A DNA stretch of 64,000 nucleotides, from the NCBI RefSeq assembly GCF_003334335.1, contig NZ_QOWQ01000004.1. One strand, 5' to 3'. Both the position numbers and the translations under genes were made by a program. Positions within the stretch are counted from its first letter, which is position 1, and each line of letters begins with the position of its first letter. The notes below the pieces were generated by a model. It was given only the letters and a program-made list of their open reading frames with translations. It made no database searches and was not told where the DNA came from. The stretch comes from Escherichia coli. Lineage in GTDB: Bacteria; Pseudomonadota; Gammaproteobacteria; Enterobacterales; Enterobacteriaceae. Positions 11,161 to 54,399 of the stretch are shown here, piece after piece.

Positions 11161-11190
11161 AACGCTGGCGTGGAGCAACACGCCAGCGTT
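11161..11190. terminator. Bidirectional hairpin between convergent guaC and hofC
   Basis: Inverted repeat aacgctggcgtg-gagcaa-cacgccagcgtt (approximate). Confidence 0.6.
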
Positions 11191-12391
11191 ATCCCATCCC
11201 ACTCATCGCATCGCCTAAATGGAAAATTGGCAGATACATTGCCACCACCAGCGTACCAATAATTCCTCCCGTTATGATCAGCAACGCCGGTTCCAGTAAG
11301 GCTGCGAGGTTATCCGCCAGCGCCATTGTGTTTTCCCGATGATGATGGGCGAGGTTGTCTAACATGAGATCCAGAGAGCCGGATGCCTCTCCTGTTCTCA
11401 CTAATTGCAAACAGAGCGGGCTAAACTCACCGGTATTTTTTAGCGCCAGCCAGATGGGTTGACCGTTACTGATATCGTGCTGGATTTGTGTCAGAAGTTG
11501 CACCCAGTACGGGCAGCGCATTGTTTCTCTGACGCTCTCTACGCCCTGTAAAAAAGTAATGCCTGCACTTTGTGTCAGCGCCAGAATCGTAAAGATCTGC
11601 GTGAGTTTTTGTCCCCGCATCAGTGAACCCATAATCGGGATGCGTAACAGCAATTTCTGCCGCACTATAAGCCAGGTCGGTCGGCGCATCAGCAACTTAT
11701 TGGCTATCGCCAGCAGAAAGCCGAACAACACCAGCAGCCAGCTCCATTCGCCACTAAAGTCTGCCAGCGTCATGATCCCCTGCGTTAGTGCCGGTAGTGG
11801 GGTGTTGAAGGTCTTATAGATAGCGGCAAACTCCGGCAGAACAAAATGCAGCATTGCCACAACCACCATGATTGCCATCGCTAAAATGATGATGGGATAA
11901 CGTAACGCTGATTTCACTTTGTCGGTCAACTGACGCTGGGCTTTTTGCTGACGCGCCAGTTCAAAGCAGCATTCATCCAGCTTACCGGTCAGTTCACCCG
12001 TGCGGATCATCGCCTGATAGAGCGGCGGAAATACCTCTGACCAGGGTAATAAGGCATTGGAAAAAGCAATGCCCTGTTCGAGATCGTGCGCCAGCGATTG
12101 CAGCAACGCTTGCCATTGCTTACTGGGATGCTGTTCCGCCAGCAGAGCCAGCCCTTCAGAAAGCGTTAACCCTGCTTTGAGTAGCGTCGCCAGTTGATGA
12201 ATGACTTCCGCGCTTTTATCTCCTCGCCACTGCGCAGAATTGATGGCGATTCGCTTCAGGCTTAGTGGGGTAACCATCTGTTGCTGTAGTGCCATAAGCA
12301 GTAAAGTACGGCTCTCTGCCCATAGCATCCCATCTTGCGCATTGCCGTCGCCGGTTATGCCATGCCAGCGCCAGAGTTGCTTACTCGCCAT
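11189..12391 (-). CDS. hofC: Type IV pilus assembly platform protein HofC (PilC/GspF family)
   Basis: 400 aa polytopic membrane protein; recognised. Confidence 0.95.
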   Translation of the reverse strand: MASKQLWRWHGITGDGNAQDGMLWAESRTLLLMALQQQMVTPLSLKRIAINSAQWRGDKSAEVIHQLATLLKAGLTLSEGLALLAEQHPSKQWQALLQSLAHDLEQGIAFSNALLPWSEVFPPLYQAMIRTGELTGKLDECCFELARQQKAQRQLTDKVKSALRYPIIILAMAIMVVVAMLHFVLPEFAAIYKTFNTPLPALTQGIMTLADFSGEWSWLLVLFGFLLAIANKLLMRRPTWLIVRQKLLLRIPIMGSLMRGQKLTQIFTILALTQSAGITFLQGVESVRETMRCPYWVQLLTQIQHDISNGQPIWLALKNTGEFSPLCLQLVRTGEASGSLDLMLDNLAHHHRENTMALADNLAALLEPALLIITGGIIGTLVVAMYLPIFHLGDAMSGMG

Positions 12392-13766
12392 GCGGCATCC
12401 CCAGTACGCGGATTAACTCTTCAAAGGTGGTTAAGCCTTGCTCTACGGCCAGGCAGCCGTTTTCAAAAAGCGTACGCATACCCGCCTGTCGTGCGTGCGT
12501 TTCCAGCGATTCAACGTCGGTATTAGCGGAAATAAGCTGACGAATGACCGGCGTTATGGGCAGAACTTCAAATAAGGCCGTACGACCATAAAAACCGTGG
12601 TAGCAATGTACACAACCGGGTGCCTGCCAGTGGGGCAGCGGCGATGGCCATACATTGTCTGGAATGTGGATGGGCTCCCCTTGCTGCCGGCGACAATGTG
12701 GGCAAAGTTTGCGTACCAGACGCTGGGCTATTACCAGCGTAAGCGCCGATGATAGCATCCAGCGGGCGACCCCCATTTGCTGTAAACGTACCAGCGTTTC
12801 GCAGGTGGAATTAGTGTGTAGGGTAGACAACACCAGGTGACCAGTTTGCGCCGCTTTAATAGCGATCTCTGCTGTTTCGCCATCGCGGATCTCTCCGATC
12901 ATGATGACGTCAGGATCCTGGCGCAATAACGCACGCAAAACGCCCTGAAAGGTGAGTCCGGCACGCGGATGGATTTGCGTCTGGTTTAGTCCGGCTATGG
13001 GGATCTCAACTGGATCTTCGACGCTACAAATATTAATGTCAGCGGTATTCAGCTTTTGCAGGGCACTATAAAGCGTGACCGTTTTGCCGCTGCCGGTAGG
13101 GCCAGTTACCAGCACCAGTCCCTGTGGTTGTTGCAAGGCATGAGCAAAGTCCGCCAGTTGTAACGGCTGCATTCCAAGCGTGTTGACATCCAGTGCCTGA
13201 CCCACCTGCTGTAACAACCTTAATACCACCTTTTCACCACCCCGACATGGTAAGGTCGCAATACGAAATGAGACGGCGTTTCCTGCCAGTTCGACAGTGA
13301 ATTGCCCGTCCTGCGGCAGGCGATGTTCCGCAATATCCAGGTTTCCCAGCACTTTTAATCTGGCGGTTAATGCGACTCCGGCATCCGGTGAAACATCCGG
13401 TAAAGGATGCAATACGCCGTCGATACGCAAGCGGATGCGGTAGGCATTGTCCGCTGGTTCGATATGAATATCAGACGCGCGTTGTTCCAGCGCAGATTGT
13501 AACGTTCGAGTTAGCAACTCTGCTTTGGGCTGATGCTTCTCCTGAACAGCTACGGGCAATGTCTGTTGTGTGCGACTGGCGTGACCTTCCATTTGTTGGC
13601 GCGTCCAGCAGGTGATCTCAATACGTTTGGTGGTAGCGAAATGCAATGCGTCCAGTAGCTCATGCGAAGGTGCATCGACTACCGCAACATGAACCACCTC
13701 TTCGCTGGCATCCAGCAAGACTCCATGATAACGCAGACACAGGGCAGTGAGCTGTGGAATATTCAT
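12381..13766 (-). CDS. hofB: Type IV pilus assembly ATPase HofB (PilB/GspE family)
   Basis: 461 aa; Walker A GPTGSGKT; 11-nt overlap with hofC. Confidence 0.95.
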   Translation of the reverse strand: MNIPQLTALCLRYHGVLLDASEEVVHVAVVDAPSHELLDALHFATTKRIEITCWTRQQMEGHASRTQQTLPVAVQEKHQPKAELLTRTLQSALEQRASDIHIEPADNAYRIRLRIDGVLHPLPDVSPDAGVALTARLKVLGNLDIAEHRLPQDGQFTVELAGNAVSFRIATLPCRGGEKVVLRLLQQVGQALDVNTLGMQPLQLADFAHALQQPQGLVLVTGPTGSGKTVTLYSALQKLNTADINICSVEDPVEIPIAGLNQTQIHPRAGLTFQGVLRALLRQDPDVIMIGEIRDGETAEIAIKAAQTGHLVLSTLHTNSTCETLVRLQQMGVARWMLSSALTLVIAQRLVRKLCPHCRRQQGEPIHIPDNVWPSPLPHWQAPGCVHCYHGFYGRTALFEVLPITPVIRQLISANTDVESLETHARQAGMRTLFENGCLAVEQGLTTFEELIRVLGMPHGE

Positions 13767-13775
13767 TGCCGCTCC

Positions 13776-14216
13776 TTAGTTGGCGTCATCAAAGCGGAAG
13801 ACATCTTCGCAGGCTTGCTGCAATGCGCTGTCACTTTGAATATTGCAGTTGCGCGTCCAGCCGGTGACGCCGTTTGCGTTATCCCAACCCGGTGTCATGA
13901 CGACGCTTAGCCCATTGAGACTTTCTTGCCCGGTCAGCGACACCACGCCCTTTGCCACACTCATGGCTGAAACATAGCGGGTGGTGGTAGGCGAGGGAAT
14001 GCCATTGCTGCCACCGTCGCAGGTATCTAATCCACCATGTTCCAGCGCGCACAACTCTACGGCGGTACGGTAAGGCACAAAGGTTTGTAGCATGTCGGTG
14101 AGTGCGGCTTTGCGCAGGTAGTTTTGATAAGCGGGAATACCAATGGCGCTTAAAATGGCAATGATGCCAATAACCACCATCAGTTCGATAAGTGTAAAAC
14201 CGCGTTGCTTGTCCAT
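13776..14216 (-). CDS. ppdD: Prepilin PpdD (type IV major pilin)
   Basis: 146 aa; prepilin N-terminus MDKQRGFTLIELMVVIGIIAIL (G|F cleavage site, N-methyl Phe). Confidence 0.95.
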   Translation of the reverse strand: MDKQRGFTLIELMVVIGIIAILSAIGIPAYQNYLRKAALTDMLQTFVPYRTAVELCALEHGGLDTCDGGSNGIPSPTTTRYVSAMSVAKGVVSLTGQESLNGLSVVMTPGWDNANGVTGWTRNCNIQSDSALQQACEDVFRFDDAN

Positions 14217-46381: not shown

Positions 46382-47620
46382 TCAGGGATAGGTTACCTGG
46401 AAAGTACTGGTGGCTTTAAATTCGCCGGGTTCGATAGCAATATTCCCGTCTTGCTTTAATGTTGCCTGGAAATGAAGAGGCTGTGATGTGCCGTTACCTT
46501 GATTAGGGTAAACCCCATCGGAGGTGTCATCTTCGGTTTCATAATCTATATAAACAGAATTCGTATCATTAGGTTTTAATGTCATTAGCGGATTTTTACT
46601 GGTTGCTAAACCTTCAATGAGTACGCCAACGCCTTTGGCGGCAGTGCTTCCAGTAAGCGTATTACCAAGCAGTTGTGTGTTTTGAGTACCTACTTTTCCA
46701 GTGACGAGTTTTGTTTCAATATTACGCACACGAATACAATTCTGAAGCGAGATATCAAAGGGAACAGGTGAAGCGCCATTTTTAATTGTCCCAGAGCTAT
46801 ATTCTCCCATTCTAACCGTTGAACCATTGACTGATGGCCCGGTAAGTATGGAGGTAAAACATGTTGGTAAGGTTAATTTGACATTATTCAGTGTGAAATT
46901 GACATAAATGTGGTTGCTGTGATCTACAACTTTTGTACCAGGACTGTAGGCCTTAAACGAATAAAGGTAATTTGATGAACTGGATAACTGGACTTGCTGA
47001 TTAAGTGTAGGATCGAAATTAGTATCTGTATAAAATTCAACAGTTATGTTGTGTACTATACCACCAATAGCCCAAAACTTATCGTAGTCGTCTGCTTTGT
47101 TGCAACCCTTAGTTTGTAGATCGCTGTCTGTGACGGAAAAGAAAAATTCTTGGTTGGAAGGATCTCCGATATAGATTCCTGGCGATTGAATGTCAGTTAT
47201 TGTATCGTATGCAGACCAGACCCTTGATATTAACATGGTGTAATACAGACCAGGAACAGATGTATTAAATAGTTTATGTCCGCCATAATCTTTACCTGAA
47301 TAGACCATGGCATTTTCAATAGTTATTGGACCAGGATTCGCTCTGCCAGATGTATTGCAGTAAAGAATACCACCACCGGTACCTGTATCCAGGTATGACC
47401 AGTACATTTTTACCCCAGTCGGGCCGAGCTGCGTGGGTTTATAAAAAACCAAGTTGCTTGCTGTTGATGTGTAATTAAAGGTCATCTGTGCGGCAGTGGA
47501 GGGGCCTCGATAGTTATCAACTCCTGCATTATTTCCCACAATAAAACTTGTATATGCACTGACTGTATTACAACAAGAATACAGTGCTAAAAAAAGAATG
47601 TACCTGAAGATAGTCTTCAT
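46382..47620 (-). CDS. yadC: Fimbrial tip adhesin-like protein YadC
   Basis: 412 aa; signal peptide; C-terminal fimbrial subunit ending ...FQVTYP. Confidence 0.92.
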
Positions 47621-47669
47621 TTTTACTCCAATGTTTCTTTATTGTTATGGTTTGCGCTGTTTTTGTTTG

Positions 47670-48266
47670 TTATTCGTAGTAAATATCCACTAACACATGG
47701 CTCATAAGTTGACCAGATGTAACACTCAATGCAGGATCGATTTTTTGCATTCGGGTGCTAAATTTCCAGGATGAACCATTCATGTCATCCGACATTACTG
47801 GATAAACGGAACGAGATCCGCCTGAAGCATTAAGAACATTGAATGTATTCGCCGAATCCTGAGTAGAAAATATAACTACTCCTACATTACTTGCTCCTGA
47901 CGAAATTTCATTAGCAAATATTTGCCTAGAGCCAGCAGCCATGACACCGCTAAGGGCTCTAAAATCAATATGTAACTGATTTAGCACATCGCCAGTTCCC
48001 TGTAATGCACAGTCGGATACAGTGATAGTGAACTCTTTTCCACCTGGTTGATAACTTTCAGGAGTAACATTACCTGAAAAATATCCCACCCCAACGACGC
48101 CAAGATCAATATTACCCTGGTTACTGATTCCGCTTTTGCAGGTGCTGTTTTTTACATTGGCAACAAGGTCAATATCCTGTCCAGCAATGGCTGGACAGGC
48201 GATGCAAAACAGTAATGACAGAAACAGAATTATTCTCTTCATCAGCTTACGTTGAGTGGGATGCAT
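47670..48266 (-). CDS. yadK: Fimbrial subunit YadK
   Basis: 198 aa; signal peptide; C-terminal ...VDIYYE. Confidence 0.9.
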   Translation of the reverse strand: MHPTQRKLMKRIILFLSLLFCIACPAIAGQDIDLVANVKNSTCKSGISNQGNIDLGVVGVGYFSGNVTPESYQPGGKEFTITVSDCALQGTGDVLNQLHIDFRALSGVMAAGSRQIFANEISSGASNVGVVIFSTQDSANTFNVLNASGGSRSVYPVMSDDMNGSSWKFSTRMQKIDPALSVTSGQLMSHVLVDIYYE

Positions 48267-48292
48267 ATATAGTTCCTGAATCTGTAAGTCTG

Positions 48293-48898
48293 TTAGTTAT
48301 AGGTTACTGTAAATGTGGCTGGTGCAGAAAACTTACCCGCAGTGACATTGTTTACGGTTTTATTTTTTTCCACGACCAGGCGTGCACTCATCGGATAATA
48401 AACGACCGCATTGGCTGCAGTGGAGATTGTTACCTCTTGTGATGCTGGTGTTACACAGCTAAATTGTGTTGCACTCCCTGTTGCCGGAGTTACAGTGCTC
48501 CAGACTTCAACGGCGACAGCACTTGCTTTATCTGCGGCTGTGGAACCATTTGCAAACCCCGCACCGTCATTAGCAGTTCCCTCGCATGTGGCTCGCTTGG
48601 TTAATTTTATTTGCGCTTTTTTATTGGGGATACCCGCACAGTCTTTGAATTTGAGTTTGAATGTTTTTACTTTGGTCTTGGCATTGATTTCAGAAATATA
48701 TACATCACCAAAATCAACAACAGAAATGTCCTGATCAGAGTCATTTACTAATGTAGCGGTACAAGTACCCATTTCTACAGTAGTAATAACGGTCAGTCCA
48801 ATACTGTCTGTTGCCGCATAAGAGAGTACGCTGAACAATGAGGCAGCCAAAACGACACTGCTGGATAATCCATAACGTAAATTTTTAAATGTCATCAT
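48293..48898 (-). CDS. yadL: Fimbrial subunit YadL
   Basis: 201 aa; signal peptide; ends ...TFTVTYN. Confidence 0.9.
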   Translation of the reverse strand: MMTFKNLRYGLSSSVVLAASLFSVLSYAATDSIGLTVITTVEMGTCTATLVNDSDQDISVVDFGDVYISEINAKTKVKTFKLKFKDCAGIPNKKAQIKLTKRATCEGTANDGAGFANGSTAADKASAVAVEVWSTVTPATGSATQFSCVTPASQEVTISTAANAVVYYPMSARLVVEKNKTVNNVTAGKFSAPATFTVTYN

Positions 48899-48909
48899 AA
48901 TTATCCTTC

Positions 48910-49479
48910 TTATTGATAGATGAAATTAAACGTCGCCAGTGCACGAAAATTCCCCGGTACGCCTTGCCCTGCATCTGTTTCACGTAGCGCAACGGTCATT
49001 TCAAGACCCTTATCGGGCTGCATCTCGTCTGTGCTCCAGCGTATCTTTTCCGCACTGTTAGGTTTAAGGAAAGTGGCATCATCAGTAGTCCGTTTTTTGA
49101 AACCCATACCGATATTACTTGTCGTCGAAGATGAATCACCAGACTGCGGTATAATAAGCTTAGGTGAGCTTGATGATGCATTTCCGGTCAGAGTGGTATC
49201 AATCCAACTGATGCCACTGCTGCACCCACTGGCAACCAGTTTAAAATCAGCCTGAGATTCTGTCGTTTTATTCGCGATCTTATCCAGACCCATCTTAGGG
49301 ATTCTCAATGTGTAGTTATTATTGCCATCATTCGTGACGTTATTACCAGTAAGTGTGATGTTACAGGTTGTCGCTTTGACAGTGGCTGTAAACTCTACAT
49401 TAATATCCGTTGCAAATACTGAGGGTGATAATAATATTCCCATCAGTATCACTATTTTATGTGGCGTTGTTTTTATCAT
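48910..49479 (-). CDS. yadM: Fimbrial subunit YadM
   Basis: 189 aa starting MIKTTPHKIVILMGILLSPSVFA; ends ...TFNFIYQ; track ORF extends 14 codons upstream. Confidence 0.88.
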   Translation of the reverse strand: MIKTTPHKIVILMGILLSPSVFATDINVEFTATVKATTCNITLTGNNVTNDGNNNYTLRIPKMGLDKIANKTTESQADFKLVASGCSSGISWIDTTLTGNASSSSPKLIIPQSGDSSSTTSNIGMGFKKRTTDDATFLKPNSAEKIRWSTDEMQPDKGLEMTVALRETDAGQGVPGNFRALATFNFIYQ

Positions 49480-49495
49480 TTGACGTCCCTTGTAG

Positions 49496-52093
49496 TTACT
49501 GAATCTGACACCGAATTCCATTCAGAATAATAGATTGTGCTATTTTTTCTGCTTCTGGGCTTTGTTGATAATGCGCAAGACAACTTACGGGTTTACTTTG
49601 TTCGAGCCATTTAATGCTGATATTTCCCTGCTGCTCAATACCACGAACAAATGCTTGTCCACCCTGTCCAACATTACCAATGACATTGCCTTGCTCATCA
49701 TAAATATCTGCAGCAAATGGAATATTTTTACCATCACTTCGTGTGATGTTCATAATGGCTGATTGCCCTTGCACGGTTTCAAAATCAGCAAAGACGACTG
49801 AACCCTGACGCGGTACAGCTACTGCACTGGTACTTTTTAATTCAACATCGTTCTCAAGATCGTTGATATCCAGCGCGATACGGTTTTCATGATAAGGAGA
49901 AAGAGCGCTGGTGACACCATAACCCCATCGATCGATAGTACTGTTGCCATAATTTATTCGCGCTCCTTGAGCACCTGGAGCCTGAACTACCGCCAGTGTA
50001 TCGGAGTCGCTAAAACTATCATTACTGAAAGTCAGTCCACCGCTATGCAATACAAAACCACCGTCGGTGCTGAGAGAAACTTGACGGCTGTTATCGCTAT
50101 TTGCAGAAATTGAACCTGCCAGCGTTCCCCATGGTGACTCATAGCTGGCATAACCCCCAACATAACTCAAATCTTTGCTGGCTTTATTCATCGTATAGCC
50201 AGTATTCACGCTATAACTGACGCGAGCGTTATCGCTATAGCCACTGCTGCTAACGTTGAGTTGGTTATTACCCTTAAAGTCACTGCTTATTTGAGTATCA
50301 ATACTCTGGAAACCTGAAGTACGTTGTTCAGTGCCAAGTAATTTTTCAATTGGAATGGTGAAACTAAGATAAACGCTATCGTCAGTGTCGCCGTCTTCAT
50401 TCCATGAACGCTGGGCACTGACACTGTAGCTGCCCCAGGATGTACTGTTACTGTAGCCAATAGAGTAATTGCTACGATTTTGTCCGGAAGCCCAGTAATC
50501 GGACCAACTTCCGGAAAGATAAAATGAACCGTAATCTTTTTTCTCAAATTTCAACGGTTGGTTAATACTGACCGTAACCTGATTTTTCATGCGTGAGTAA
50601 TTACGCATGGATTTCGGTTCAAGATCTTGTTCGGGATGTTTCACTTCATCAATTAGAGTTAGTGCATCATTAAGACCAAGGTAATTCTGTGTCGAATAGC
50701 GATAGGCCGCGATATTCAGTGAAGTACTTGTTTCTTCGAATAACTTGTTCCAGGAAACACGATAACTTTGCCCCTGGTATGTTTTATCATCCGGGATACG
50801 AACATTGGAATGAGTCACATCGAAAGAAAATGCACCAACTGAAGTATTCAGACCAAGACCTAACAAACCAGCGGTATAGTTATTATCGGTTATCTGAATA
50901 CCGGTATAACCCGTCAGATAGTTATTCAGGCCGTAGTAGTAGCTTGCTTGAAATAAATTAGGCTCATCCTGAATATCATCTTTTAAGACCTGACCGCCGC
51001 TAATATCCCAACGTCCAACGCCAGGGCGTAACATTTGAACAACGGATGAGAAAGGTTGCGAGAATGTCCGCTTTGAGCCATCGGATTCTTCGATGGTAAC
51101 AATAAGATCGCTGCCGTACCCTGACGGACTCAGATCATCAATGACGAAAGCGCCTGGCGGCACCGTCGTTTCATAAATCTTATAGCCACCTTGCGTAATA
51201 GTGACTTTGGCGTTGGTATTGGCAACGCCATGAATGATAGGCGCAAAGCTGGCTAAAGTCGGAGGCAACATGCGGCTGTCACTGTATAAACGAATGCCTC
51301 GGATACTGACGGAATCAAAGGTTTCGCCCGTCGTATAAGACTCACCAAGAATGAGTTGAGAACGCAGCGAGGCGATATCACGCTGAACATACCGATTCTT
51401 AAAATCATAATTACTGCCAGAATCGGTCATCCAGTTGTAGTTGCCCGAGGCACGCAGTCGCCATGCACCTAAATTCATCCCACCGTTAAATGCAGCATAA
51501 ATGCTTTCATTTTTTCGACCAGGGGTTTCACTATGATATCCGTTGAGGTTGTATGACAACATGGCCGCATTAATGCCGTTTTCCCATAACGATGGATCAA
51601 CATAGTTTTGGTAATTTTTCATTACCCAGGCTTGAGGAACGTCTATATCCAGACGTTGATCGTTAACGTCATAACGAACAGAAGCCTGAGGGATAATTTC
51701 CGTCAAATTGAGGCAATTGCCGAGCGTTTCATCCCTGGCAAGCAGAACGGCTTTTTCGTTATTTATATCGGGAGAATTAATATGAAACTGCAATAAATTC
51801 TTTAATGTGATACAAGCCTGGGCGTTCTTTTTTCCTTCAATTGCGACAAATGTAATACTTTGGTTAATGATTGGTTGGTCGTTTACATAAACACTGACGT
51901 CGTAAACACCCGGTATAGCGGGGTTACCTTCACTGTACCGGCTGAGATCAATATTAGATGCATTCTGCCCCATCAGGAAGGTATGGTCATATTCAACGAG
52001 TTCAGCACTGAAAGCAGTATTGCAATACAGCAGCGCGCAAAACGTGGCGATACGGGTCAGATGATGATAATTTTTAGTATATTCTATAGTCAC
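49496..52093 (-). CDS. htrE: Outer-membrane fimbrial usher HtrE
   Basis: 865 aa usher protein recognised. Confidence 0.96.
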   Translation of the reverse strand: MTIEYTKNYHHLTRIATFCALLYCNTAFSAELVEYDHTFLMGQNASNIDLSRYSEGNPAIPGVYDVSVYVNDQPIINQSITFVAIEGKKNAQACITLKNLLQFHINSPDINNEKAVLLARDETLGNCLNLTEIIPQASVRYDVNDQRLDIDVPQAWVMKNYQNYVDPSLWENGINAAMLSYNLNGYHSETPGRKNESIYAAFNGGMNLGAWRLRASGNYNWMTDSGSNYDFKNRYVQRDIASLRSQLILGESYTTGETFDSVSIRGIRLYSDSRMLPPTLASFAPIIHGVANTNAKVTITQGGYKIYETTVPPGAFVIDDLSPSGYGSDLIVTIEESDGSKRTFSQPFSSVVQMLRPGVGRWDISGGQVLKDDIQDEPNLFQASYYYGLNNYLTGYTGIQITDNNYTAGLLGLGLNTSVGAFSFDVTHSNVRIPDDKTYQGQSYRVSWNKLFEETSTSLNIAAYRYSTQNYLGLNDALTLIDEVKHPEQDLEPKSMRNYSRMKNQVTVSINQPLKFEKKDYGSFYLSGSWSDYWASGQNRSNYSIGYSNSTSWGSYSVSAQRSWNEDGDTDDSVYLSFTIPIEKLLGTEQRTSGFQSIDTQISSDFKGNNQLNVSSSGYSDNARVSYSVNTGYTMNKASKDLSYVGGYASYESPWGTLAGSISANSDNSRQVSLSTDGGFVLHSGGLTFSNDSFSDSDTLAVVQAPGAQGARINYGNSTIDRWGYGVTSALSPYHENRIALDINDLENDVELKSTSAVAVPRQGSVVFADFETVQGQSAIMNITRSDGKNIPFAADIYDEQGNVIGNVGQGGQAFVRGIEQQGNISIKWLEQSKPVSCLAHYQQSPEAEKIAQSIILNGIRCQIQ

Positions 52094-52127
52094 GCTATGC
52101 TTCCTGCGGAATTATATCCTTGCCTGA

Positions 52128-52868
52128 TTACAGCCTGGCATTACCTTCAATTGCGCCACCAAAGTCATTAATGGCGTAAAAATGCACTTTTGCAGAATTC
52201 GCTTTGCCATTAAGGCCATTGACTTTCATGACCTCATCACTAAATGGTGCAATCATTTTCACATCAATCGGATAGCGTTTACCGCTAGCTTCTAAATCAC
52301 CACTGCTAAAAGAGACGTAGTAAGGGGTTGGATTGGTCACTCGTAATGACGCCTTACCTTCTGAACCTGACCAGAACCACTTCAGGGCTAACGGGGCTTC
52401 AGAGGGATTTCCCTTCAATCCATCCGGGCGATAGAAAAGTTTTATACGTGTGCGAAATGCCAGTTGCAGCAGGCTTTGATTCGCGACCTTTTCTGCATCT
52501 GGTTTTGGTGGAACTTCCAGTACGTTAAACCAGAACACGCTCTCTCTGTCTTTAGGCAGTGAGGTGCTGGCTGTGTACATTAATTTGATTGTTTGCCCAC
52601 GTTTGGCATCAATACGCGATACTGGCGGCGTAGCAGTAAAAGGGACTGTAATACTGCCAGGCTCAGCGTTGTCATCGCCAGTATCTAACCAACTCTGGAC
52701 AAGCAACGGGTTATTCCCTTTATTTTCCAGACGTACGTTGACACTTTTTTGATCGCTTTTATATATTACGCGAGTACCCGAAATGACAATGTCCGCAATA
52801 GACGATGAACTAAAAGCCATACAGGTTACGAAGCATAAAGCTGTTGTATGTTTGGTGTTAAAAAACAT
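52128..52868 (-). CDS. yadV: Periplasmic fimbrial chaperone YadV (EcpD)
   Basis: 246 aa PapD-like chaperone; signal peptide. Confidence 0.95.
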   Translation of the reverse strand: MFFNTKHTTALCFVTCMAFSSSSIADIVISGTRVIYKSDQKSVNVRLENKGNNPLLVQSWLDTGDDNAEPGSITVPFTATPPVSRIDAKRGQTIKLMYTASTSLPKDRESVFWFNVLEVPPKPDAEKVANQSLLQLAFRTRIKLFYRPDGLKGNPSEAPLALKWFWSGSEGKASLRVTNPTPYYVSFSSGDLEASGKRYPIDVKMIAPFSDEVMKVNGLNGKANSAKVHFYAINDFGGAIEGNARL

Positions 52869-52965
52869 AAACCATCCCTGATAGAGTTAATTAAAACAGG
52901 GAATAATATAAAATAGAAATTATTATTCCCTGTATATTCATTCAATCAATTTAACTGGTGAATAC

Positions 52966-53550
52966 TTACTGATAAGTAATGGTGTATGCAGTGTTAGTTT
53001 TTACATAACCAGCAGTTGCTGTTTGGTCTGCGACGGCACGAACGTAAGACGCTTTAAAATCATAAACAGCAGATTTTGTCGTTGCATCCAGGGCTTTAGT
53101 ATACACATCGCCAGGGTTGTTAATTTGAACCTGTTTGATAGTGGAACCATCAATATTGTGTAGAGCGATATTAACGCCGTCAGATGGGTTGTTAATAGAC
53201 ATGTCGTTGTTCAAAGTCCCTTTGCTGTTACCAAAGAAAACAGAACCGAAGGTCATTTTAGCCGTGCTACCTGGATTCGGATTTGCTTTGCTGCAGTCAA
53301 CGGTGATGCTGAAAGGTTTAGCTTTAGCGCCAACGGTGTCATTCAGTACGCCAGCATCGATTTCACCAACGGTTGCGGTTTGCAGCAGGATCAGACCATC
53401 CTTGTTACCGCCGTCAACGCGGGTTTCACAGGTGTTATCAACAACCAGACCACTGATATTTAACTGACCGCCGTCCATATCAGCAGAAGCAGTACCTGCA
53501 ACCATCGCCAGCATAAGACCAGACAGGGCAAAACCTAATTTTTTAGACAT
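52966..53550 (-). CDS. yadN: Major fimbrial subunit YadN
   Basis: 194 aa; signal peptide [23 protein letters not shown]; ends ...YTITYQ; first gene of the operon. Confidence 0.93.
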
Positions 53551-53919
53551 AAAAATCCTTTAATAAAATTCCATTAGTCAGACTACATGTTTGAAGAATG
53601 ACTATTCATGACACAAATAGGAGAAACAAATGTTAGATATTAATGAGCAATGATATTTGTTACCCAAATTTACAACCATTGTTCATTAGGTCGCCTATTG
53701 TGCACTTTAGAAGCTTTTGAACAAATTAAATTTACTTAATTCAAAATTAAGTAAAAATAAGTTCACAAGTGCAATTGGTTAGGGTATGGAGATGGGATTG
53801 ATATTTATTTATAGGAAGTTATATTATTTCCGCAAAGAGATGTTTAAACTAAAATCGTAATTAAGGAAAGAGATGAGATATGATTTTCAGAAAATATTTA
53901 TATTCGCAATATAAATAAA
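53551..53919 (-). promoter_or_regulatory. AT-rich upstream region of the yadN fimbrial operon (likely nucleoid-protein-silenced promoter)
   Basis: About 370 bp of strongly AT-rich non-coding DNA 5' of yadN; no specific sites resolved. Confidence 0.5.
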
Positions 53920-54399
53920 TTACCATTTGTTTAATTTGTCAAATGCTCTTGTATGTAAGATTTGACGCAACATCTCCCCATCAGGAAACACCAACTCCGG
54001 CGCGATTTCAAACAGCGGCCACAGCATAAATCCACGATTCTTCATATCGTAGTGCGGAACGGTCAGGCGTTCAGTATTTATCACTTCATTACCAAACAGC
54101 ATGATGTCGAGATCCAGCGTGCGTGGTCCCCAGCGTTCAGCTTTGCGGACGCGACCTTGCTGCAATTCAATACGCTGTGTGTGATTGAGTAGCTCTTCAG
54201 GTGCAAGAGAGGTTTCCAGCGCCACGGCTGCGTTTAAGTAATCGGGTTGATCTTGCGGCCCCAGCGGTGGGGTGCGGTAAAACGAAGAAACGGTAAGAAT
54301 GTGGCTTTCAGGGATATCGCCTAATGCTTTCAGGGCAGCATTGACCTGCTCCAGCGGAGAGGCCAGATTGCTGCCTATGGCAATATACGCCACTGTCAT
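53920..54399 (-). CDS. folK: 2-amino-4-hydroxy-6-hydroxymethyldihydropteridine pyrophosphokinase FolK
   Basis: 159 aa ORF recognised; 4-nt overlap with pcnB stop. Confidence 0.96.

Follow-up and report, generated by a model that had tools for sequence, protein, structure and literature searches.

The closest described systems are the Yad fimbriae of Escherichia coli, which are of the gamma4 chaperone-usher type, and the Sta fimbriae of Salmonella (staA-G), and the two have been called orthologous (PMC3559732). Yad fimbriae form an active published field through their part in adhesion in the urinary tract, the bloodstream and gut colonisation, and possibly in persistence on plant material. Wurpel 2013 (PMC3559732) described Yad as core-associated and ancestral with Salmonella Sta, and Yue 2012 (PMC3373541) likewise concluded that the operon is shared with Salmonella at the folK/panB site. 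Surface fimbriae appear in K-12 on forced expression (Korea 2010, as cited in PMC11287998 and PMC13245861), a surface ELISA for YadN has been reported (PMC13245861), the genes form three transcriptional units in EHEC (PMC11287998), and expression is not phase-variable (PMC13245861). D-xylose and annexin A2 are ligands of YadC (PMC6921372), and the literature as a whole lists D-xylose, xylose-containing glycans and annexin A2 (PMC6921372, PMC13245861, PMC11287998). The reported cues are serum, ethanolamine (in EHEC), low temperature and anaerobiosis via ArcA (PMC6921372, PMC13245861, PMC11287998); human serum raises yad expression (PMC13245861), and the work on xylose and ArcA is that of Larsonneur 2016, as reported in PMC13245861. 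An earlier note on the present DNA, which took the receptor and the inducing conditions to be unknown, is out of date on both points.

We analysed a 64-kb stretch of E. coli DNA (the window) that carries, on its minus strand, a fimbrial operon between folK (53920-54399) and panB (45474-46268). The locus taken as a whole is almost certainly the E. coli K-12 Yad operon, silenced by H-NS and occupying an old, positionally fixed site. We observed directly which genes are present and to which families they belong, their composition and synteny, how far the alleles diverge, the adhesin fold and a hairpin behind yadN; the identity of the locus, its AT-richness, H-NS control, ligands and cues had already been published, and the observation is in these respects correct but ordinary. 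Nothing that we found contradicts the Yad identification. The region is 100% identical in nucleotide sequence to K-12-like E. coli genomes, whose RefSeq annotation uses the same gene names.

The seven open reading frames are intact, and their identity, order (yadN-yadV-htrE-yadM-yadL-yadK-yadC) and roles are as the earlier note had proposed. [quoted passage not shown] Families were assigned by NCBIfam equivalog cut-offs, which five of the seven proteins reach: YadC (NF007268, 885 bits, cut-off 382), HtrE (NF007337, 1701 bits, cut-off 830), YadV (NF007398, 472 bits, cut-off 285), YadL (NF011795 'YadL', 448 bits, cut-off 392) and YadK (NF011794, 311 bits, cut-off 132). The best NCBIfam match of YadN is StaA, below the cut-off, and YadM is StaD-like, again with a score below the cut-off. 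The usher domains PapC_N, Usher and PapC_C were found on a cluster 98% identical to HtrE, and PapD_N and PapD_C are present in syntenic homologues of YadV. By inspection, all five subunits carry the pilin hallmarks of a signal peptide, a cysteine pair and a penultimate C-terminal tyrosine: YadN has a signal peptide, the pair Cys41/Cys86 and the C-terminus ...TYQ, YadM a signal peptide, a cysteine pair and ...IYQ, and YadL and YadK end in ...TYN and ...YYE. The RefSeq start of yadM at 49479 has AGGGA upstream, with the longest open reading frame extending to 49521. For yadC, the ATG at 47620, preceded by GGAG, seems a better start than the ATT at 47632 given in one RefSeq record.

The GC content of the operon span is 41.7%, compared with 52.3% elsewhere in the window; the lowest-GC 7.5-kb interval of the whole 64 kb begins at 46401. 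The folK-yadN regulatory region (53551..53919, minus strand) is 369 bp long with 26.6% GC, so that the AT-rich upstream region of about 370 bp described in the earlier note is borne out, as is the AT-richness of the operon relative to its flanks. Codon usage, which that note had suggested comparing, points the same way: GC3 is 0.34–0.41 in the seven genes and at least 0.49 in all 47 other annotated genes (Mann-Whitney p = 3e-8). Only yadN is codon-optimised (CAI 0.63, 0.5% rare codons), the six other genes having a low CAI (0.31–0.39). Composition of the H-NS type, with GC markedly below that of the host and an AT-rich promoter region, is thus present.

The proposal that the operon is silenced agrees with published Δhns experiments (PMC12460168, PMC13245861), and repression by H-NS is documented both for K-12 and for ExPEC. 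In Δhns E. coli, yadC is derepressed (PMC12460168); loss of hns in CFT073 increases yad promoter activity more than 100-fold, and all seven yad genes are derepressed in Δhns derivatives of CFT073 and EC958 (PMC13245861). Given this published repression (PMC13245861), the 369-bp upstream region should contain the H-NS-silenced yad promoter. Transcription would run from the extremely AT-rich DNA upstream of yadN; it is normally silenced by H-NS, and released in hns mutants and, in part, by environmental cues. A scan for promoter and terminator consensus sequences showed no enrichment, giving 19 promoter-like sites where shuffled sequence led one to expect 21.2, and on the coding strand it detected no strong sigma-70 match ahead of yadN. 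Because GATC is absent from the upstream regions of all seven E. coli alleles, a Pap-type Dam switch was rejected. We also discarded a fim-type invertible switch, the annotation having no recombinase gene nearby, and a small regulatory reading frame, the upstream gap holding only chance-like frames of 21–29 aa. Short AT-only inverted repeats occur in this region, as is expected of DNA with 27% GC. A palindrome, ACTTAATTTTGAATTAAGT (53734..53752, minus strand), lies about 185 bp upstream of the yadN ATG and is recognisable across E. coli alleles (imperfect in 401656 and in the O55:H7 type) within surroundings that align poorly; it was not evident in the Salmonella upstream region. A second, weaker copy stands 114 bp away at 53849–53865, and these two make up two of the three matches in the 64-kb window. 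Judged by its sequence, the palindrome is a candidate operator for some regulator.

The 97-nt gap between yadN and yadV contains a hairpin (52896..52933, minus strand) with a 13-bp stem followed by a U-run, and the RNA of the gap folds with −25.2 kcal/mol (z = −2.6 against dinucleotide shuffles). Each of the eight alleles examined has a strong hairpin after yadN, among them the O55:H7 and WR14-2 types and Salmonella, although its sequence differs from allele to allele. Its function is probably that of a partial terminator or an mRNA-stabilising element. No T-run follows the hairpin in Salmonella, and so its role cannot be that of a terminator alone in every allele. The element would attenuate read-through or stabilise the yadN message, and together with the optimised codons of yadN it could yield a large excess of the major subunit. 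An Rfam match to mir-786, returned by a scan of 44–56 kb, is at chance level (22.6 bits against a gathering score of 93) and reflects this same hairpin.

In YadC, the Pfam Fimbrial domain is confined to the C-terminal third (residues 269–415 of the 416-aa form). A sequence search against the PDB returned nothing at E ≤ 1, so that the lectin domain is without a detectable sequence relative there and fold comparison was needed. The AlphaFold2 model (pLDDT 93, pTM 0.84) was compared with the PDB by Foldseek, which gave FimH as the best match, with LpfD, CupB6, FocH and the UclD lectin domain also among the top matches. On the strength of this model, YadC is a two-domain tip adhesin composed of a lectin and a pilin domain. 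It is also the most divergent gene of the operon among strains (27–69% amino acid identity). The earlier note had suggested comparing the adhesin domain across strains for diversifying selection. According to published work the lectin domain is the most variable part of YadC; pairwise dN/dS, taken across the gene, is 0.1–0.25 in both domains, with dS saturated, and gene-wide positive selection was ruled out.

Assembly is expected to follow the general chaperone-usher route. YadN, YadM, YadL, YadK and YadC would be exported by Sec, captured in the periplasm by YadV, and polymerised via donor-strand exchange at HtrE; YadC would enter first and so end at the tip, the minor subunits would act as adaptors, and YadN would form the shaft. 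That the K-12 cluster is instead a decaying, non-functional remnant on its way to pseudogenes seems to us hardly credible. The literature does describe the operon as silent under laboratory conditions, yadC of 2013C-4361 has an internal stop, 210221272 has lost nearly the whole operon through IS1, and IS1, IS903B or IS3 insertions occur at the locus in some strains. All seven frames are nevertheless intact in the window, gene-wide dN/dS between alleles is about 0.1–0.25, which indicates purifying selection, yadN keeps its optimised codons, and the regulatory features are conserved; moreover, published work reports in vivo phenotypes and, when expression is forced, functional fimbriae (PMC13245861, PMC6921372, PMC11287998).

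The earlier note found the composition of the operon consistent with horizontal acquisition, and it would fit foreign DNA that entered the E. coli lineage recently, between panB and folK, and has kept its foreign character: GC and GC3 lie below those of the remaining window, CAI is low in six of the seven genes, H-NS silencing has been published, and yadC has been placed among 'horizontally transferred genes' (PMC12460168). We consider such a recent genomic island improbable, and the claim is not supported in its usual sense. The 64-kb window has no tRNA and no annotated integrase, no direct repeats flank the operon, and yadN, with its CAI of 0.63, is codon-adapted. In strains chosen from three deep allele classes the folK/panB site is occupied by a chaperone-usher operon, and the ushers of these classes occur in 4000, 613 and 461 of 5,426 complete genomes. 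Each strain lacking the K-12 type that was examined has a syntenic operon at the site except 210221272, where an IS1 deletion accounts for the only empty site observed. Between folK and panB, Salmonella enterica carries a major subunit, a chaperone, an usher, three minor subunits and an adhesin, arranged as in E. coli; this shared site, which accords with the ancestral reading of Wurpel and Yue, largely refutes a recent island. We read the operon as an ancient component of the E. coli/Salmonella chromosome, fixed in position, rather than a recently inserted mobile element, with very divergent alleles shuffled by recombination.

How the alleles became so different is a separate matter. HtrE of K-12 is 60% identical to that of the O55:H7 type and 63% identical to that of Salmonella, so that the distance between alleles within E. 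coli equals that between genera; synonymous distance between alleles is saturated (dS > 1), compared with 0.03–0.46 in flanking genes; and the GC content of the operon differs among alleles (K-12 41.7%, O55:H7 type 46.4%, Salmonella 51.1%). The divergence tapers off gradually within folK and panB, which is what recombination tracts predict, and mosaic operons exist, such as that of 2013C-4361, which is 98–100% K-12-like from yadN to yadL, 83% in yadK and 66% in yadC. Whole alleles may have been exchanged at the folK/panB site by homologous recombination. All these observations would also suit an ancestral site whose AT-rich K-12-type allele was imported later from a lower-GC enterobacterium and replaced an older allele by homologous recombination in the conserved flanks, an account that we take seriously while judging it less probable than not. 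No donor emerged: the nearest ushers other than E. coli alleles among 5.8 billion clustered proteins are only 62–63% identical (Salmonella, Leminorella), and a scan of a genome collection with HtrE returned just three E. coli-like relatives, namely one E. coli genome, one MAG labelled Proteobacteria (89% identity) and one 436-bp contig. The last of these belongs to a Terrisporobacter assembly and looks like contamination. The same pattern could, in addition, arise if alleles diverged in place under long-term balancing selection. A broader proposal, which we advance tentatively and consider rather doubtful, is that the panB/folK locus is a long-lived hypervariable cassette whose allele classes are as old as the split of E. 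coli and Salmonella and are kept by balancing or diversifying selection, with recombination dragging the essential folK along; the AT-richness of the K-12 class would be kept up by selection for H-NS control instead of being a foreign leftover, and the hairpin and palindrome would form an undescribed regulatory layer.

Because the Yad locus is core-associated and common to Salmonella, low GC and H-NS silencing do not by themselves signify a recent island. Very divergent alleles at the same site escape screens with an 80% identity threshold, and the strains that carry them are called 'Yad-negative'; O55:H7 DEC5D, the one phylogroup-E-type strain examined, has the full seven-gene operon there. 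The present work makes minor additions, which are the saturated dS between alleles, the spill-over of divergence into folK and panB, the hairpin in every allele and the codon optimisation restricted to yadN. Population geneticists might find the extreme divergence of the alleles, and its reach into folK, of interest, as a modest step beyond what is known.

Compared with the known systems, the operon described here is the reference Yad allele itself and differs from it in nothing. The Sta-related operon at the folK/panB site of Salmonella has the same position, seven-gene order and domain content, and NCBIfam relates YadN, YadM and YadL to StaA, StaD and StaE; it differs in its usher (63% identity), its adhesin (approximately 28%) and its GC content, which at 51% is near that of its flanks, compared with 41.7% here. 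Type 1 fimbriae (fimAICDFGH) share with Yad the assembly pathway and the logic of major subunit, chaperone, usher, adaptors and two-domain tip adhesin, whereas Yad has no invertible promoter switch or recombinase genes, and the reported ligands of YadC are xylose-containing glycans and annexin A2 rather than mannose. The O157:H7/O55:H7 locus (the loc2-type allele), named yad in the EHEC literature, has the site and seven-gene layout of K-12 but diverges strongly from it (HtrE 60%, YadN 44% and YadC 27% identity; GC 46.4%), and this divergence explains why a screen at 80% identity scores strains with that allele as Yad-negative (PMC13245861).

The interval 46382–53550 is occupied by seven non-overlapping minus-strand ORFs: yadC (46382–47620), yadK (47670–48266), yadL (48293–48898), yadM (48910–49479), htrE (49496–52093, with a GTG start), yadV (52128–52868) and yadN (52966–53550). 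NCBIfam confirmed the identities of the downstream flank, panB (45474–46268), and of the upstream flank, folK (53920–54399). At the equivalog level the adhesin, usher, chaperone, YadL and YadK-type matches scored above the NCBIfam cut-off, and those of YadN to StaA and of YadM to StaD, their Salmonella counterparts, fell below it. Several K-12-like genomes are 100% identical over an 8.4-kb stretch and carry exactly matching RefSeq gene names, and the identification of a seven-gene chaperone-usher operon in the earlier note is thus correct. The whole window is a K-12-type ftsQ-to-mrcB segment, differing from strain MINF_8D by 12 mismatches in the 57 kb compared. The intergenic gaps of 97, 34, 16, 11, 26 and 37 nt, with 369 nt to folK, fit a single transcription unit with internal modulation.

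Each of the five subunits has a signal peptide, two conserved paired cysteines and a C-terminal strand whose penultimate residue is tyrosine. The classical assembly pathway is established for chaperone-usher families, and Yad, whose family membership we tested by sequence and fold, would be assembled in the same way. In YadC, the Pfam Fimbrial domain is restricted to residues 269–415, and the N-terminal ∼240 residues gave no Pfam match and no PDB relative by sequence search; the family is narrow, with 123 representatives (E ≤ 1e-3) among 1.84 billion proteins. An AlphaFold2 model built from a 40-sequence alignment (pLDDT 93, pTM 0.84) best matched the two-domain tip adhesins FimH, LpfD and CupB6 in the PDB, followed by FocH, CfaE and the UclD lectin domain, so that the description of YadC as tip adhesin-like is confirmed at the fold level. 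As for the yadC start, ATG at 47620 (412 aa), with GGAG eight bases upstream, appears more plausible than the ATT at 47632 (416 aa) used in the MINF_8D RefSeq record.

The AT-richness attributed to the operon and its upstream region is strongly borne out by windowed analysis. The span 46382–53919 has a GC content of 41.7% compared to 52.3% in the remaining window, the folK-yadN gap falls to 26.6%, and a scan of 7.5-kb windows across the 64 kb placed the GC minimum at a start of 46401. GC3 shows the same split: the seven yad genes lie at 0.34–0.41, and none of the window's 47 other annotated genes falls below 0.49 (p = 3e-8). The sole non-yad stretch among the 25 lowest-GC 1-kb windows (17751–18750, 42.9% GC) is the long pdhR-aroP intergenic region. 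Codon adaptation was calculated with highly expressed genes of the window itself (aceE, aceF, lpdA, acnB, ftsZ and secA) as the reference: six yad genes have indices of 0.31–0.39, at the low end of, and overlapping with, the window range (0.34–0.69), whereas yadN reaches 0.63 and has 0.5% rare codons, much as ftsZ and hpt do, although its GC3 is 0.41. These codon statistics indicate a major subunit adapted to high-level translation in its host, which is at odds with freshly imported DNA. The window also holds a second cryptic pilus locus, hofC, hofB and ppdD (a type IV pilin gene; about 11189–14216), in which codon adaptation is low (0.34–0.43) and GC3 normal (0.53–0.59), unlike yad, where both are low.

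We compared the operon with its alleles in other strains. Amino acid identity to the K-12 copy is 98.6–100% for the flanking pcnB and panC products and ranges from 98% down to 60% for HtrE, 100% down to 44% for YadN, 85% down to 41% for YadK and 69% down to 27% for YadC; the O55:H7-type usher, at 60%, is about as distant from the K-12 type as is the Salmonella usher (63%). Published work had already noted that the minor subunits and the YadC lectin domain vary more, and that nucleotide diversity is unusually high in the yad genes (PMC4850163). Allele classes are saturated with synonymous changes relative to one another (dS > 1, often incalculable), compared to a dS of 0.03–0.46 in the flanks, and gene-wide dN/dS is about 0.1–0.25. 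At this gene-wide level the variation reflects purifying selection on old alleles and not a recent burst of positive selection. In YadC, for which a check for diversifying selection had been proposed, the N-terminal lectin part does have a higher dN (0.25–0.95) than the pilin part (0.16–0.80), yet omega does not exceed 1. The operons are mosaic, such as that of 2013C-4361, which is 98–100% K-12-like from yadN to yadL, 83% in yadK and 66% in yadC. GC content also differs by allele (K-12 type 41.7%, O55:H7 type 46.4%, Salmonella 51.1%), which leaves room for allele replacement from a lower-GC donor; our search found no such donor, the nearest non-E. coli ushers being 62–63% identical. A 436-bp contig of a Terrisporobacter mayombei assembly (NZ_JAHZMP010000283.1, coverage ∼1x) encodes part of an usher that matches E. 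coli HtrE at 100% identity, almost certainly because the assembly is contaminated with E. coli DNA.

The divergence fades gradually into the 3′ part of folK (53920–54399) and, more mildly, the 5′ part of panB (46014–46268). FolK, an essential enzyme, is for this reason only 87–96% identical among the E. coli strains compared, while PcnB, whose gene overlaps the folK start, is at least 99.6% identical; over the last ∼80 bp of folK, nucleotide identity drops to 62–68% in some strains. The pattern resembles hitchhiking with yad, a hypervariable locus. Two kilobases from yad, the panD-panC gap contains rpnC/yadD (43635–44537, plus strand), a recombination-promoting nuclease gene of the transposase-like Rpn family; the position is variable, with several strains carrying a different Rpn-family gene and a short RpnC/YadD-family ORF.

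Silencing by a nucleoid protein, also anticipated in the earlier note, is established by published experiments: repression of the yad promoter by H-NS exceeds 100-fold in CFT073, deletion of hns in CFT073 and EC958 derepresses all seven genes, silencing is regained on complementation, and human serum leads to higher expression (PMC13245861). The receptor and inducing conditions, unfamiliar to that reader, are both at least partly known, including D-xylose and annexin A2 as reported YadC ligands (PMC6921372), ethanolamine as an inducer in EHEC, where RT-PCR defined three transcriptional units (PMC11287998), and low temperature and anaerobiosis via ArcA (Larsonneur 2016, as cited in PMC13245861). 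The upstream regions of seven E. coli yad alleles contain no GATC sites, and no recombinase gene is annotated near the operon, which rules out a pap-type or fim-type phase switch, in keeping with the literature, where Yad is described as not phase-variable.

Two sequence elements may contribute to this regulation. A hairpin with a 13-bp stem followed by a U-run lies in the yadN-yadV gap (52896–52933), and a strong hairpin of differing sequence follows yadN in 8/8 alleles examined, those of Salmonella and of the most divergent types within E. coli among them. Its retention despite different sequences points to a conserved attenuator or stabiliser, which would increase the yadN share of transcripts, a role that would fit the multiple EHEC transcription units. 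Upstream of yadN, the palindrome ACTTAATTTTGAATTAAGT (53734–53752) is recognisable across E. coli alleles, although imperfect in two, in DNA that is otherwise barely alignable. Its CTTAA-N7-TTAAG core (53735–53751) recurs as a weaker copy 114 bp away (53849–53865), and the window has just one further match, for a total of three. We regard the palindrome as a candidate operator.

The label "horizontally acquired" needs correction, since the operon is not an island in the usual sense. The window contains no tRNA, and we found no direct repeats flanking the operon and no annotated integrase at the locus. The 8.4-kb query matched 5,425 of 5,426 complete E. coli genomes, with at least 80% coverage in 3,913 (72%), in agreement with the published "Yad-positive" share of 70%. 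By megablast, in which weak matches may be shared between classes, the K-12-type usher matched 4,000 genomes, the O157/O55 type 613 and the WR14-2 type 461, with position checked in representative strains. The strains examined below 80% coverage have an occupied site, as in O55:H7 DEC5D (a complete seven-gene operon between panB and folK) and WR14-2 (six genes), bar one: in 210221272, the sole truly empty site seen, an IS1-mediated deletion removed nearly the whole operon, leaving a yadC fragment. Damage is frequent in other strains, with an internal yadC stop in 2013C-4361 and IS1, IS903B or IS3 insertions in several genomes.

Salmonella enterica carries, from folK to panB and in the same order, a major subunit, chaperone, usher (63% identical to HtrE), three minor subunits and a 404-aa adhesin. 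Yad has already been described as core-associated, "ancient" and orthologous to Salmonella Sta in identical position (Wurpel 2013; PMC3559732), and the same view was taken for the S. bongori sba cluster (Yue 2012; PMC3373541). The operon is a well-described system, and the saturated dS, the folK spill-over, the structure-conserved hairpin, the palindrome upstream of yadN and the optimised codons of yadN itself are small additions that extend what is known of it rather than a discovery.
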